A DNA stretch of 44,045 nt, taken from contig BTVY01000052.1 of assembly GCA_045863335.1 (NCBI GenBank), positions 1-44,045 of the forward strand, written 5' to 3'. Shown one piece after another: positions 17,318 to 44,045 of this stretch. Under the pieces are notes generated by a model. The model did not search any database. It saw only the letters and a list, made by a program, of their open reading frames with translations, and was not told the origin of the DNA. This DNA is from Candidatus Hydrogenedentota bacterium. GTDB taxonomy: Bacteria > Hydrogenedentota > Hydrogenedentia > Hydrogenedentales > SLHB01. Made by a program: the position numbers and the translations under genes. Positions within the stretch are counted from its first letter, which is position 1; every line of letters begins with the position of its first letter.

Positions 17318-17571
17318 GGTGCATCGCCTCTTGTGGACGCCCGACGCTCAATGCGCCTTGCGATGTTCGTTTACGATCGGCGTCGCTCATCCAAGGGTTT
17401 TGGCGTCGCGCATGACTAAATGGTACGCGTGAATCGGCAAAAGCCGGTAGATTGATCCTCTTTGATTATTGCCTATTTATGCGAGTGATTATGTTTATGT
17501 TGCACCCCAATGGTTTGCGTGGTAACATTTGGTCATGCGGTTGCGTTGAGAAAGTCGATAAAATAGGGGAA

Positions 17572-18489
17572 ATGGCTGTGCGCACTTTGCAGGCGGCAAT
17601 TCAGGGCCTGACCACGAGTATTGCCCGATTGACTGAGCGGGGCGAGTTGACCGCAACGGCCGTTCCCGGCCTGTCGCTGTTTCGGCGGGATGAGCCGACG
17701 GAACCCGTGACGGGCATGTACGATCCGAGCATTTGCATGGTTGCGCAGGGCGCAAAGCGTGTAACCCTCGGCGACGACACGTATGTGTACGATGCGCACC
17801 GTTACTTGATCACGTCGGTGCATCTACCGACGGTGTTTCAGATTATCGACGCGAGCGAAGCGAAGCCGTATCTGGGTCTTCGGTTGATGCTCGACCAGCG
17901 CGAGATTTCCCAACTGATGCTGGACAGCAATCTGCCGGCTCCCCGCACGCAACAATCCAGCCGGGGCATGGCGACGGGCGAGGTGACGCTTCCGCTGCTC
18001 AGCGCGATTCAGCGGCTGGTCGATTTGCTCGACGACGAACGCGACATTCCGATACTGGCGCCGACCATTCAGCGAGAAATCACGTACCGTTTGCTCGTGG
18101 GCGAACAGGGCGCGCGCCTGCGTCAGATTGCGACGGCGGGGAGCCAAAGCCAGCAGATTGCGCGGGCTATTGATTGGTTAAACGGAAACTTTGCGAAGCC
18201 ATTGCGCGTAGAGGAACTTGCCAAGCAGTCGAACATGAGCACCTCGACCTTTCACCACCATTTCCGGTCGATGACCGCGCTGAGTCCGCTGCAATATCAA
18301 AAGAATCTGCGCTTGCAGGAAGCCAGACGGTTGATGCTCATGGAGCGTATGGACGCGTCGACCGCCGCGTTCGAAGTGGGCTACGAAAGTCCATCGCAAT
18401 TCAGCCGTGAGTACAGTCGTCTCTTCGGTCAACCGCCGCTACGCGACATCTCGAATTTGCGTCACGTGGCGGTCGGGGAGAGTGCGTAG
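17572..18489 (+). CDS. AraC family transcriptional regulator (AraC_N-type sensor domain)
   Basis: AQGAKRV.LG and EI.YRLL.G.QG motifs; C-terminal HTH (MS.STFHHHF, SPLQYQK.LRL, VGYESPSQFSREY.R.FG); divergent from the cupin-SDR operon. Confidence 0.92.
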   Translation: MAVRTLQAAIQGLTTSIARLTERGELTATAVPGLSLFRRDEPTEPVTGMYDPSICMVAQGAKRVTLGDDTYVYDAHRYLITSVHLPTVFQIIDASEAKPYLGLRLMLDQREISQLMLDSNLPAPRTQQSSRGMATGEVTLPLLSAIQRLVDLLDDERDIPILAPTIQREITYRLLVGEQGARLRQIATAGSQSQQIARAIDWLNGNFAKPLRVEELAKQSNMSTSTFHHHFRSMTALSPLQYQKNLRLQEARRLMLMERMDASTAAFEVGYESPSQFSREYSRLFGQPPLRDISNLRHVAVGESA

Positions 18490-18492
18490 CGC

Positions 18493-18573
18493 GCGGCGGT
18501 CGACGTTGTCGGAGAATCCGCAGTAGTAGTGGCCGGACGTGGCGCTTTGGAGGATATAGGTCCAGTAGGGCAT
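18493..18573 (-). pseudogene. Truncated third GIY-YIG copy (first ~27 codons)
   Basis: Translates MPYWTYILQSATSGHYYCGFSDNVDRR versus MPYWTYILRSATSGRYYCGFSDNVARR in the intact copies. Homology stops at the araC stop codon; in-frame stop at 18439-41. Confidence 0.88.
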
Positions 18574-18598
18574 GGGATCGCTCCTTGCCTTGGCCTGG

Positions 18599-18636
18599 AA
18601 GAAAGCGCCCCGGTCCAGTTTTCACCGGACCGGGGC
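18599..18636 (-). terminator. Intrinsic terminator, array unit 3
   Basis: Minus strand GCCCCGGTCCGGT-GAAA-ACTGGACCGGGGC followed by GCTTTCTT. Confidence 0.7.
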
Positions 18637-18684
18637 ATATATGCATAAACCCCGGCTACTTCAATGCCACCGAGGGAAGGCATA

Positions 18685-18787
18685 TGGCTCACCCCGCCGT
18701 TGGCGGGACCCTGCGGGCCGAGTCAGACTCGAACTTGCGACCCGCTGGTTAATCCCGCGTGCCGCGGGACTCTACCAACTGAGCTAT
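18685..18787 (-). pseudogene. Pseudo-tRNA-Asn copy with two hairpin insertions
   Basis: Matches tRNA-Asn nt 7-24 and 35-76. Nt 25-34 are replaced by TCCCGCGGCACGCGGGA, and a 26-nt hairpin insertion lies in the acceptor 3' strand. Confidence 0.88.
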
Positions 18788-19050
18788 TCACCGTTCCCGA
18801 GTTTCAGGTCGTCCAGATAGCGGCCGATGCCGCGCTTCTTGATCTTCTTCTCCAACGCCATGGCCTCGGCGCGCGTGGCGGACTCGTTTTGCCAGACGAG
18901 TTCCCAAGGACCCTCGAAGCGTTTCGTGGTTTTCGAGCCGTGGTAGTTGGGGTCGTTGTGTTCGGCGACTCGGCGGGCCACGTTGTCGGAGAACCCGCAG
19001 TAGTAGCGGCCGGACGTGGCGCTACGCAGAATGTAGGTCCAGTAGGGCAT
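18784..19050 (-). CDS. Small GIY-YIG nuclease family protein (UPF0213/YhbQ-like), copy 2
   Basis: YWTYIL.S...GRYYCG.S.N..RR..EHN and EA...E..IKK motifs; 88 aa; identical to 43494-43760. Confidence 0.9.
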   Translation of the reverse strand: MPYWTYILRSATSGRYYCGFSDNVARRVAEHNDPNYHGSKTTKRFEGPWELVWQNESATRAEAMALEKKIKKRGIGRYLDDLKLGNGE

Positions 19051-19069
19051 GGGGTTGCTCTTTGCCTGG

Positions 19070-19107
19070 AAAAAAGCGCCCCGATCCAGTTTTCACCGGA
19101 CCGGGGC
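19070..19107 (-). terminator. Intrinsic terminator upstream of GIY-YIG copy 2
   Basis: 13-bp stem with GAAA loop followed by GCTTTTTT. Confidence 0.75.
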
Positions 19108-19169
19108 ATATATGCATAAACCCCGGCTAAAAGTTACTGCCGCCGAGGGAAGGCATATGGCTCCGCGCG

Positions 19170-19592
19170 ATGCGAACTCAGCGAACTTTTGCTTGCGGAT
19201 GGCACGTAGCGCCGGTCCATCGCAACTCGTTAGATCGCAATGTGATATATGCGGTGACTCAAGCTGAGGAGCCGGGCGAGAACGAACCGATCAGTGCAAT
19301 AGCGCTCTCATTGTCCTTTCGAAAGATGCTGGACGAAGGTACAGTCCGCGATCCGACCCACCTTGCGCAGCAATTGGGTCTGACTCGGGCTCGAGTCACC
19401 CAAATCCTGAACCTCCTCAAACTTCCACCAGCGGTCATCACTGAGCTGGGCGACGCCAACGAACCTGCCGAGATTGCCTTCTTCACCGAGAGGCGTCTGC
19501 GTTCCATGACCACGCTTACCTCTGCCCAAGAACAGCTTGAGGCTTTCCAGGCCATGAAAAAGGAACTTGTGGCACTCTCCGTTGCTCAGTAA
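19170..19592 (+). CDS. ParB/KorB-like HTH protein of the kind found beside or at the C-terminus of large serine recombinases
   Basis: F..MLDEG.V.D...LAQQLGLTRARVTQILNLLKLPP and TERRLR motifs; starts 5 bp inside the left junction; may be an N-terminally truncated remnant. Confidence 0.6.
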   Translation: MRTQRTFACGWHVAPVHRNSLDRNVIYAVTQAEEPGENEPISAIALSLSFRKMLDEGTVRDPTHLAQQLGLTRARVTQILNLLKLPPAVITELGDANEPAEIAFFTERRLRSMTTLTSAQEQLEAFQAMKKELVALSVAQ

Positions 19593-19988
19593 CGGCCAGC
19601 TGCCTCGGGTCCGTAGCTCATCCATCCAGGAGACAGACCCATCGCCGGCGAGATAACGGTGGACCCAGGGTAAGTCTCTCGTAGGATGTGAAATTGCAAC
19701 GCGTTCTTGTCAGCTAGGGTTCAGCCTACATAGTGCTCTAGGCAACTGACACTTCCATTGAAAGCAATCAGAAGTGGTGAACCCGTATCAGCAGCGATGG
19801 TCAAACAGAGCGTCGCGGCACCCACTAGCGGCATAGCCATGAACATCGATTCAACTCCAAGGGCAAAGCTGGTGACCTGTCAAGAAATCGACAAAGTACA
19901 TCTGCAAAGATGCCCCCACGACGGCGCGTTGCTACTCGCGCATTTGCACCATGAATAGCACTCTCCGCCGACTCGTATCAGGGGCAAC

Positions 19989-20016
19989 TTGAAATCTATA
20001 CATAAATATGTATAAC
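19989..20016 (+). promoter_or_regulatory. Promoter with overlapping palindromic operator, probably the Rrf2 autoregulatory site
   Basis: TTGAAA-16 bp-TATAAC, with TATACATA-AA-TATGTATA (19997-20014) overlapping the spacer and -10. Confidence 0.65.
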
Positions 20017-20050
20017 TATGGATAGAGGATGCAATCGAGCGAGGTGGTGC

Positions 20051-20467
20051 GTGTTACCCAAGACATCAGAGTACGCTTTGCGGGCTGTGGTGTGGTTGGC
20101 CCGCGAACCGGGGCGAAAGGCTTCGGCCGACCTCCTGGCCGAGCACACGAAGGTACCACGCCGTTATTTGCACAAGGTCTTACAGGACTTGGTGGGCGGC
20201 GGCCTCGTGTGGTCCCAGCCTGGTCCCGGCGGCGGCTACGCGTTGGCGCGACAACCTGAGGATGTCACGATCCTCGACGTGGTCAATTCCGTGGCGCCCT
20301 TGGAGCGTATCCGCAGTTGCCCGCTTGGGCTTCCATCGCACACGACACTCTGCCCTCTCCACAGCGAATTGGACCGGGTCTACGCCGCGGCGGAACGTGC
20401 GCTGGGGCGCGTGACGATTGCAGAGTTGCTCCGTTCGGCAAGCCCAGTCGTTCCGTTGTGCGGGTGA
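20051..20467 (+). CDS. Rrf2 family transcriptional regulator
   Basis: EYALRA, YL.KVL..L, S..G.GGGY.LA and DVV..V motifs; Cys/His set CPLG...H..LCPLH; GTG start after GAGGTG. Confidence 0.92.
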   Translation: MLPKTSEYALRAVVWLAREPGRKASADLLAEHTKVPRRYLHKVLQDLVGGGLVWSQPGPGGGYALARQPEDVTILDVVNSVAPLERIRSCPLGLPSHTTLCPLHSELDRVYAAAERALGRVTIAELLRSASPVVPLCG

Positions 20468-20504
20468 CGTAGCTTCAACGCCAGTTGAAAAAAGGAGAAT
20501 CCCG

Positions 20505-42914: not shown

Positions 42915-43106
42915 TACTTTGTCTCTTCCGCATCTGTGTTCGCCCTGATCAAGTACTGCAGGCCGATTACGATTGGGAAACCATTTCCTTGTTAACGCGA
43001 TTGTTCGATAGCGCGCACGCCGGGCGCCGCTTCCAACGGCTTTTTTGCGATGCCACGACGCCGCCAACACCGCGCTATAGGGTCAACAGAAACAAGGTGG
43101 CATTCT

Positions 43107-43273
43107 ATTCGGGCCGGCCGGGCATGCGCGGGAGAATCTTGGCCTTACCTGCCCTCCGGCCCTCGCGAGACCGGTCCCGGTAAAGCCTTGCTACGGCGCT
43201 ACTTCCACGAGAAGCGGCAATGTGCTGAACCCGCTTGCAGGGTACGCGGCCCGCTTCGCCGGCCGGGCCGAGT
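43107..43273 (-). ncRNA. Candidate structured RNA or ssDNA element (unassigned)
   Basis: Nested complementary segments paired by eye: terminal stem, UACC(C)UGC/GCAGGUA, AAGCGG/CCGCUU, and a CCGGUC..GCGA..GGCCGG hairpin. Confidence 0.35.
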
Positions 43274-43424
43274 TTAATTTGATTCGAGTAGTGCTCCGAA
43301 GGAGCTCCTCCAGGGTTACCCATAATTCCACCCTAGCCAGCGGAGTATCAAGAACAGGCAAACTTTCTGGGAGATCTTGACATCATGTTAACCAATCGCC
43401 GTTTAGTCAGTTTTCTCATTTTGA

Positions 43425-43497
43425 TCCCCGAGCAAGACTCGAACTTGCGACCCGCTGGTTAATCCCGCGTGCCGCGGGACTCTACCAACTGAGCTAT
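43425..43497 (-). pseudogene. Pseudo-tRNA-Asn copy whose 3' end is split by the island
   Basis: tRNA nt 7-24, a 17-nt hairpin (43463-79), then nt 35-72; the remaining GCCA is at 19158-19161. Confidence 0.9.
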
Positions 43498-43760
43498 TCA
43501 CCGTTCCCGAGTTTCAGGTCGTCCAGATAGCGGCCGATGCCGCGCTTCTTGATCTTCTTCTCCAACGCCATGGCCTCGGCGCGCGTGGCGGACTCGTTTT
43601 GCCAGACGAGTTCCCAAGGACCCTCGAAGCGTTTCGTGGTTTTCGAGCCGTGGTAGTTGGGGTCGTTGTGTTCGGCGACTCGGCGGGCCACGTTGTCGGA
43701 GAACCCGCAGTAGTAGCGGCCGGACGTGGCGCTACGCAGAATGTAGGTCCAGTAGGGCAT
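43494..43760 (-). CDS. Small GIY-YIG nuclease family protein, copy 1
   Basis: Same 88-aa sequence as 18784-19050; its TAG stop is nt 8-10 of the following pseudo-tRNA. Confidence 0.9.
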   Translation of the reverse strand: MPYWTYILRSATSGRYYCGFSDNVARRVAEHNDPNYHGSKTTKRFEGPWELVWQNESATRAEAMALEKKIKKRGIGRYLDDLKLGNGE

Positions 43761-43779
43761 GGGGTTGCTCTTTGCCTGG

Positions 43780-43817
43780 AAAAAAGCGCCCCGATCCAGT
43801 TTTCACCGGACCGGGGC
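43780..43817 (-). terminator. Intrinsic terminator between tRNA-Asn and GIY-YIG copy 1
   Basis: GCCCCGGTCCGGT-GAAA-ACTGGATCGGGGC followed by GCTTTTTT. Confidence 0.78.
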
Positions 43818-43867
43818 ATATATGCATAAACCCCGGCTAAAAGTTACTGCCGCCGAGGGAAGGCATA

Positions 43868-43943
43868 TGGCTCCCCGAGCAAGACTCGAACTTGCGACCC
43901 GCTGGTTAACAGCCAGCTGCTCTACCAACTGAGCTATCGGGGA
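43868..43943 (-). tRNA. tRNA-Asn (GTT)
   Basis: TCCCCGATAGCTCAGTTGGTAGAGCAGCTGGCTGTTAACCAGCGGGTCGCAAGTTCGAGTCTTGCTCGGGGAGCCA; 76 nt, complete cloverleaf, encoded CCA. Confidence 0.98.
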
Positions 43944-44045
43944 TTAAACTTGGTTCCGACGCTGCTGGTTAATCCCGCTTGAAGGCGGGACTCTACCAAC
44001 TGAGCTATCGGGGATTAAACTTGGTTCCGACGCTGCTGGTTAATC
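43920..44045 (-). repeat. 71-bp tandem repeat of tRNA leader + tRNA 5' half + hairpin, running off the window end
   Basis: Unit = 20-nt leader AGCGTCGGAACCAAGTTTAA + tRNA nt 1-24 + TCCCGCCTTCAAGCGGGA + nt 35-43; period 71 (43943 vs 44014). Confidence 0.9.

Follow-up and report, generated by a model that had tools for sequence, protein, structure and literature searches.

A candidate cognate hairpin of a tRNA-linked GIY-YIG nuclease family related to the Ssn single-stranded DNA nucleases

Introduction

In REP/REPIN sequences with their RAYTs, and in IS200/IS605, a short palindrome is the cis site of an adjacent small nuclease and is read as folded single-stranded DNA (ssDNA); the RAYT-type enzymes are HUH tyrosine transposases with covalent intermediates, and their palindromes are GTAG-tagged and dispersed in many copies. 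Here we describe a hairpin, TCCCGC-loop-GCGGGA, that is set in partial copies of a transfer RNA (tRNA) gene beside a gene for an 88-amino-acid GIY-YIG nuclease, in 44,045 nucleotides (nt) of DNA from Candidatus Hydrogenedentota bacterium (assembly GCA_045863335.1, contig BTVY01000052.1). This stretch (the window) is the whole of contig C52 of a 105-contig, 6.75-Mb assembly. With a probability of roughly 0.55, we read the hairpin as a conserved cis element, the cognate hairpin, of a tRNA-linked single-domain GIY-YIG family related to the Ssn ssDNA nucleases.

GIY-YIG genes are also known among tRNA genes. T4 SegB is a free-standing GIY-YIG homing endonuclease gene in the phage tRNA region, and Seg proteins have DNA-binding domains and cut the double-stranded DNA (dsDNA) of the allele that lacks the gene; to our knowledge, hairpin-substituted pseudo-tRNAs are not known for genes of this type. 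Integrative elements that insert in tRNA genes restore the part they displace, they rely on att sites and on integrases of the tyrosine or serine type, and the displaced copy is a plain 3' fragment.

The closest described system is that of SsnA in Neisseria meningitidis, a 94-amino-acid single-domain GIY-YIG protein of cd10448 (Chenal et al. 2025, Nat Commun 16:2388, PMC11893778). According to that article, from which all statements on SsnA in this text are taken, the protein binds the repeat NTS (CGTCATTCCCGCGMAVGCGGGAATCYRG) as ssDNA only and on one strand only, cuts a few nucleotides upstream of it, acts on neither dsDNA nor RNA, and does not bind RNA. Stem sequence and stem structure both count in recognition of NTS, cutting requires an oriented CGTCAT tag, and the positions mutated were Y6, Y17 and E64 (PMC11893778). 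NTS occurs in hundreds of copies in Neisseria, 71% of SsnA homologs have such a motif nearby, and the authors, who also cite REP/RAYT and IS200/IS605 in their Discussion, liken NTS-ssnA-NTS to an insertion sequence and leave open the biological role of Ssn nucleases outside Neisseria (PMC11893778). The word tRNA has 0 occurrences in PMC11893778, whose supplementary tables might list members of the clade treated here, and our literature searches found no description of a tRNA-embedded GIY-YIG/hairpin association.

Results

The window holds the sole tRNA-Asn among the 45 tRNAs that ARAGORN calls in the 6.75-Mb genome, tRNA-Asn(GTT), together with derived copies that block mapping resolves into tRNA nt 7-24 or 1-24, a hairpin, and nt 35 onwards, nt 25-34 (CAGCTGGCTG) being the part replaced by the hairpin. 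An earlier reading of the window made from the letters alone (the sequence-only reading), whose hairpin strings are minus-strand readings, had described this replacement at three places, and block mapping and exact matches bear it out at each: a pattern scan for TCCCGC-N3-9-GCGGGA finds three matches in the window (18753-18769, 43463-43479 and 43973-43990), where 0.09 are expected and 0 of 100 shuffles reached three. The scan of the genome with context that it proposed returned 32 matches to TCCCGC-GCGGGA; those in tRNA context (4, plus one copy with one mismatch) all lie on C52 or contig C55, and these five, the only ones in the genome, are confined to two GIY-YIG loci. The features of both loci are as follows.

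43868..43943, minus strand: intact tRNA-Asn(GTT) (ARAGORN; Rfam tRNA, 70.8 bits)
43944..44014, minus strand: upstream pseudo unit of 71 nt (block mapping, pattern scan, fold), made up of tRNA nt 1-24 (43991-44014), an 18-nt hairpin TCCCGCCTTCAAGCGGGA (43973-43990), nt 35-43 (43964-43972) and a 20-nt spacer (43944-43963)
44015..44045, minus strand: 3' portion of the following tandem unit, which the contig end truncates, with a hairpin from 44044 that runs into contig C55
43777..43818, minus strand: intrinsic-terminator-like hairpin (14 pairs) with a T run, 3' of the tRNA and 5' of the nuclease gene
43494..43760, minus strand: GIY-YIG nuclease gene, 88 amino acids plus stop (Pfam, AlphaFold2 (AF2) model, homolog alignment)
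43425..43497, minus strand: downstream pseudo-tRNA-Asn (block mapping, pattern scan), made up of nt 7-24 (43480-43497), a 17-nt hairpin TCCCGCGGCACGCGGGA (43463-43479) and nt 35-72 (43425-43462)
18784..19050, minus strand: second GIY-YIG gene copy, identical (tblastn, 100% over 88 amino acids)
18718..18787, minus strand: pseudo-tRNA of the second locus, with nt 7-24, a hairpin (18753-18769) and nt 35 to about 65
18692..18708, minus strand: second hairpin of the same type, TCCCGCCAACGGCGGGG, with one mismatch, between a T-loop remnant and an end reading ...GAGCCA
18472..18573, minus strand: third GIY-YIG copy, truncated and decayed, its first 27 amino acids 89% identical

Read along the minus strand, the cassette consists of a promoter-like sequence (on C55), at least three hairpin units, the intact tRNA-Asn, the terminator, the 88-amino-acid gene and a hairpin copy, and the hairpins bracket the nuclease open-reading frame (43973-43990 upstream, 43463-43479 downstream), likewise in relatives. 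The TAG stop of the gene (43494-43496) coincides with nt 8-10 of the pseudo-tRNA, the universal U8-A9-G10, an overlap that is not conserved, as the reading frame ends earlier in G004 of the same genus.

The hairpin stem is the NTS core, TCCCGC...GCGGGA. Pfam assigns residues 3-72 of the protein to PF01541 (E 3.2e-16), and its AF2 model (pLDDT 86.7) predicts one compact beta-beta-alpha-alpha-beta-alpha-alpha domain; by both measures the protein has a single domain and no separate DNA-binding domain. Y6, Y17 and E67 are invariant across 30 homologs, and among solved structures the closest folds are those of UPF0213 proteins and of the structure-specific nuclease Slx1. Neither NCBIfam nor PHROGs returned a family for the protein, the 134 matches in its clade are annotated only as 'GIY-YIG nuclease family protein' or 'putative endonuclease', a search of 50,697 phage records found no homolog, and plasmid records give two weak matches (34-35% identity). 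A second small GIY-YIG gene, of 97 amino acids and the classic Ssn-like type, lies at G000 C3:220518-220812 (L094:519-812, minus strand), with three repeats upstream and two downstream of the form CGTCAT-CCYCGC-N4-GCGGGGA-YCCATCTT; 40 such repeats occur genome-wide, often as inverted pairs 60-150 nt apart, and of 8000 candidates scored, at least 7997 belong to its family. The window protein is homologous to it (BLASTP, 28% identity; hhalign, 97.9%, E 4e-13, 68 columns), and is split from four SRM-flanked Ssn-like proteins by a 100/100 branch.

The sequence-only reading had allowed that the motif might occur only here, with no co-occurrence elsewhere, and this is not what we found. Among 41 relatives, which are not independent of each other, homologs of the protein are present in 15, including all 6 genomes of the genus, and the hairpin joined to TTAACC is present in 8, all 8 with strong GIY-YIG matches, against 0 of the 26 genomes that have no such match; a reversed-pattern control gave 0. 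We compared 30 tRNA-Asn loci from relatives: 7/7 genomes with strong GIY-YIG matches have partial tRNA copies and 0/23 others do, and for hairpins the counts are 6/7 and 0/23, the seventh (G007) having a variant, TCCGCC. Two genomes from other genera that have no cassette (G024, G018) possess a tRNA-Asn 100% identical to that of this genome, standing in a plain promoter-tRNA-terminator locus.

The association extends to other phyla. We drew 51 GIY-YIG loci from a species-level genome collection, and a same-strand tRNA was called within 1.2 kb of the gene in 40 of them: tRNA-Asn is the neighbour in 17 loci, from Hydrogenedentota, Thermodesulfobacteriota, Zixibacteria, Acidobacteriota and Ignavibacteria, and in Bacteroidota it is mostly tRNA-Pro, but also Ser, Asp, Met, His, Val and Leu. 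The surroundings of the GIY-YIG genes (72.0 kb) contain 65 exact hairpins, and the other 154.8 kb contain 2; exact hairpins are present in 31/51 loci and in 22/24 of the tRNA-Asn type, and the same hairpin stands in partial tRNA copies also in genomes of 39-50% G+C. Homologous GIY-YIG genes of 80-100 amino acids, beside tRNA-Asn and flanked by hairpins at the junction of nt 24 and 35, occur under at least 6 phylum labels, and these breakpoints are found in 13 of the 21 loci with a tRNA-Asn reference (Hydrogenedentota, Thermodesulfobacteriota, Acidobacteriota and Zixibacteria).

Other tRNAs are interrupted in other ways. In the Bacteroidota copies the 17-nt anticodon arm gives way to a hairpin of 16-17 nt and the acceptor, D and T arms are kept; for example, the tRNA-Pro copies have the entire anticodon arm exchanged (agcgca, hairpin, gggtcg), and two tRNA-Pro loci (L049, L050) repeat the order of truncated hairpin unit, intact tRNA, terminator, gene and hairpin copy. 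Elsewhere the hairpin replaces nt 11-15 of the D loop (L022, L034, L061), the T arm or the bases that follow TTCGA (L026-L028, L030), or nt 39-46 after GTTAA (L033, G019). A single tRNA copy holds up to three hairpins, which lie directly next to a palindromic loop core (TTAA or TTCGA), on either side of it. The border between cassette DNA and the displaced tRNA part is a hairpin in every class, and the other border is a plain tRNA copy. In a Zixibacteria locus (L021:2400-3160), several mini tRNA-like genes adjoin a real tRNA-Asn and the GIY-YIG gene, and have an intact acceptor stem and D arm, a hairpin joined straight to the T arm, and their own T run. ARAGORN calls some hairpin pseudo-tRNAs as tRNA-Gly(gcc) (89 nt, L025:2369-2457), tRNA-Asn(att) (87 nt, L029:2737-2823) and tRNA-Asp(atc) (L050:2742-2816).

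Changes of stem sequence and of tRNA target go with changes of protein clade. The more distant protein clades show paired stem changes (TCACGC/GCGTGA, TTCCGC/GCGGAA, TGGCGC/GCGCCA, TCCCGA/TCGGGA and CCGAC/GTCGG), and one clade has (A)TGCCGAC...GTCGGCAT directly 5' of TTCGAATCC in the T loop. Our protein tree has 48 rows and 83 columns (the 51 loci minus 8 that are fragments or have stops, plus the window protein and the four SRM-flanked Ssn-like proteins), and many of its forks are unresolved. The tRNA-Asn-linked proteins form one clade in it (99/95, 20 rows, at least 6 phylum labels), and labels of target plus stem require 7 changes against 26.5 when shuffled, with 0/200 shuffles as low, a clustering inflated by near-copies.

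The hairpins of the window itself are two old lineages, not four or five independent events, because a 447-bp duplicate and a tandem repeat account for all the copies. The copies at 18753 and 43463 share the duplicate (2 mismatches, 99.6% identical), and the upstream copies (43973, 44044 and C55) are units of one 71-nt tandem repeat. The further copy that the sequence-only reading had seen beginning at 44044 does continue on C55, which starts with an exact hairpin (C55:5) and a one-mismatch hairpin about 70 nt beyond; this contig holds two further units and then, as we read its sequence, a promoter-like TTGCAA-17-TACACT. The break in the assembly therefore falls within the array of 71-nt tandem units, of which there are at least three. 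Many homologs in the protein database are on contigs of less than 3 kb, which fits repeat-induced breaks.

Both lineages are orthologous in sister genomes: the downstream loop GGCAC is common to four genomes of the genus (G000, G003, G004, G005), and upstream units with other loops precede the tRNA wherever the region is assembled in genomes of the genus, with one unit in G002 and G003, two in G005, and one degenerate plus nine in G004. Repeated fresh writing at identical breakpoints, which the sequence-only reading had proposed for the window, is not supported by copies that are duplicates of two old lineages.

The tRNA-Asn alleles of relatives (L064-L093) disagree with taxonomy: G004, of the same genus, is only 93% identical, and its anticodon-stem type is common to G013, G007 and G026. 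Alleles might travel with the cassette.

The second locus (18.47-19.17 kb) repeats spacer, terminator, gene and pseudo-tRNA, followed by the extra hairpin and the truncated gene, which is preceded by a second copy of spacer plus terminator. In-frame stops mark two further decayed GIY-YIG genes (L032, L033). At the upstream border of the second locus (19160-19240, minus strand), a string ending ...GTTCGCTGAGTTCGCA..GCG.GGAGCCA resembles a decayed tRNA 3' end and is kept at the corresponding position in two further genera (G019, G021; loci L007, L008); ARAGORN and Rfam give no match to it.

ARAGORN reports only the real tRNA in the window and calls no functional cloverleaf in its derived copies. 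The downstream pseudo-tRNA scores 23.1 bits with the Rfam tRNA model against a gathering score of 29; Rfam returns the tRNA plus one chance match across 43000-44045, and zero matches across 17500-20500. Folding predicts that the hairpin of the downstream pseudo-tRNA would form as ssDNA on both strands, and that the upstream 71-nt unit would fold in ssDNA as an extended hairpin (z -4.0). A 5-bp stem with a 7-nt loop would make the hairpin a cryptic anticodon arm reading GCA or TCA, which we rejected, as position 33 is not T and the loops are 3 to 6 long. A His call (94 nt) on C16 and a call on C26, checked as further hairpin tRNAs, are apparently ordinary non-tRNA sequence.

Discussion

Judged on its sequence, the feature is a tRNA-embedded variant of the Ssn-type hairpin-nuclease association, and the arrangement, which recurs in many phyla, points to an undescribed selfish DNA cassette living in tRNA genes. 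Of the three alternatives that the sequence-only reading raised, the evidence most favours a hairpin recognised by the GIY-YIG protein in the way that RAYTs recognise REPs: it shares its stem with the core of the SsnA site, it co-occurs with the GIY-YIG clade across phyla, and stem, target and clade covary, all of which suggest that the protein binds the hairpin.

For cleavage, choice of strand and the route of recombination, we infer the following course. By analogy with SsnA, the nuclease would bind the hairpin only in ssDNA and cut within the tRNA-derived flank, a few nucleotides from the hairpin; the intact tRNA gene, having no hairpin, would not be a substrate. Action on hairpin-tagged copies and not on the intact gene would remove the paradox of a tRNA-cutting homing enzyme whose single target is essential. 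Breaks beside tagged copies would expose ends with tRNA homology, and such ends may lead to amplification in tandem, to the duplicate at the second locus and to copies in the tRNA-Asn genes of other genomes, whilst the intact tRNA carried in the cassette would keep the host viable. The cassette would then be an insertion that replaced tRNA-Asn nt 25-34 and brought its own intact copy, and repeated events, or unequal recombination at nicked copies, may have given rise to the tandem arrays, in which the intact tRNA gene always comes last of the upstream units or first of the tandem genes.

Several observations weigh against a cognate hairpin-nuclease pair of this kind. The protein falls outside the SRM-flanked Ssn-like clade (100/100 branch, 28-29% identity), the CGTCAT tag is absent and no base of the flanks is common to all the contexts in which the hairpin occurs, and the copy number is low, with 5 hairpins in the genome against the hundreds known for NTS. 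GIY-YIG enzymes have hydrolysis but no ligation chemistry, so that insertion of any kind would require host functions. No excision or circle joints were seen in four public sequencing runs, which consist of contigs only and are uninformative on array length, RNA ends and expression level; the single joint, in run X4, represents the 18.7-kb locus in tandem form. The phage and plasmid records searched yielded no carrier or transfer vehicle for the cassette. The co-occurrence counts overstate their statistical weight, as relatives are non-independent samples, and the clustering of labels on the protein tree is partly shared descent.

A bolder version holds that this is the first bacterial GIY-YIG transposable or homing cassette to act through ssDNA hairpin ends, nicking beside the hairpin and being copied into tRNA cloverleaf loops (the TTAA of the Asn anticodon loop, the TTCGA of the T loop, the D loop) with its own replacement tRNA, with arms swapped, stem and tRNA target specific to each clade, and tRNA alleles spread between phyla; we think this unlikely.

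We regard as doubtful, on balance, that the hairpin is the scar of a homing endonuclease which cuts double-stranded tRNA-Asn near the anticodon arm, the hairpin making the duplicate uncuttable, close to what the sequence-only reading had called an immunising scar. A gene between copies of one tRNA, its patchy distribution (15/41 relatives) and its decayed copies (18472-18573, L032, L033) are typical of a homing-gene cycle, and the hairpins do adjoin the palindromic loop cores TTAA and TTCGA. However, the intact tRNA-Asn beside the gene, with the same sequence as in the cassette-free G024 and G018, means that the target is still present and essential, so that no target has been removed from the genome and the immunising role is weakened. 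A scar would also have no need of one stem across phyla or of compensatory changes, and the 88-amino-acid protein has no DNA-binding domain, its characterised relative being inactive on dsDNA (PMC11893778).

A function in RNA, with the anticodon-less tRNA-like copies serving as signals for mRNA processing or stability or as tRNA mimics, seems improbable to us. Their positions would suit it, with units between promoter and tRNA and a downstream copy after the reading frame, and so would the Bacteroidota copies that keep acceptor, D and T arms around a hairpin of 16-17 nt and the Zixibacteria mini genes (L021) with intact acceptor stems and their own T runs. Contigs of an RNA-library run (X3) cover 43435-43818 and none cover 43100-43419, where three DNA runs continue, a weak hint, from contigs of a single study, that the nuclease gene is transcribed and its transcript ends at the pseudo-tRNA. 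In the window, however, the downstream copy has no 5' acceptor strand and falls below the Rfam tRNA threshold, and the upstream units have neither T arm nor 3' acceptor strand; the G-T pairs of one-mismatch hairpins (3 sense versus 4 antisense, counted by hand) show no strand bias, and SsnA does not bind RNA (PMC11893778). The sequence-only reading's anticodon-less tRNA mimic thus fits poorly in the window, where the copies have no pairing acceptor stem or T arm, but may hold in other phyla.

Very improbable, in our judgement, is a passive palindrome, whether ordinary REP-type repeats, such as sites of the other Ssn-like gene, settled in dispensable pseudo-tRNAs, or one kept for breaking direct-repeat homology: the 40 related repeats, whose cores read CCCCGC or TCCCGC, and the flanked Ssn-like gene on C3 are compatible with it, and an interrupted 76-nt repeat would lower loop-out recombination, but the tRNA-context hairpins have no CGTCAT or CCATCTT flanks, accompany the tRNA-linked GIY-YIG clade into AT-rich genomes of other phyla, and are carried by none of the 23 tRNA-Asn loci that have no strong GIY-YIG match. 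Two further origins were rejected: integron-like G/TT crossover sites, which the tRNA-Pro junctions do not fit, and P-nucleotide or fold-back repair, as the stem is constant and not derived from the flank.

The cognate-hairpin reading ties the Ssn-type ssDNA nucleases, which were defined only recently, to a lifestyle in the genome, that of living in tRNA genes with flanks derived from the target, and the natural nuclease-hairpin pairs with compensatory stems offer material on how the 88-amino-acid protein may read its hairpin. It accounts for oddities of assembly and annotation, such as contig breaks at tRNA-Asn, tandem pseudo-tRNA arrays and tRNA calls with odd anticodons, and annotation pipelines may list hairpin copies as tRNAs with unusual anticodons. 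If the cassette does carry its own tRNA, it would provide a route for the horizontal movement of tRNA alleles.

Compared with known systems, the cassette resembles tRNA-inserting integrative elements in keeping an intact tRNA and placing a displaced partial copy at the other border, but it has no tyrosine or serine integrase or att sites here, and its partial copy carries a conserved hairpin. Like SegB, it is a GIY-YIG gene among tRNA genes with patchy inheritance and decay; unlike a free-standing GIY-YIG homing endonuclease, its protein is single-domain and the carrier genome retains an intact tRNA-Asn. With REP/RAYT it shares a short palindrome beside the gene for a small nuclease, yet that gene encodes a hydrolytic GIY-YIG enzyme and the anticodon-arm hairpins have no GTAG tag, are few and are confined to tRNA copies. 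From Ssn it differs in repeats that have no upstream CGTCAT tag and are flanked by tRNA sequence (GTAGAG and TTAACC), in hairpins that are few, not dispersed, and set at fixed positions in partial copies of one tRNA, in the intact tRNA gene inside the unit, and in a protein that stands apart from the SRM-flanked Ssn-like proteins on the tree, at 28-29% identity. What it has in common with Ssn is a single-domain GIY-YIG protein of about 90 amino acids whose Y6, Y17 and E67 match Y6, Y17 and E64 of SsnA, and whose gene is flanked on both sides by hairpins with the same stem core.

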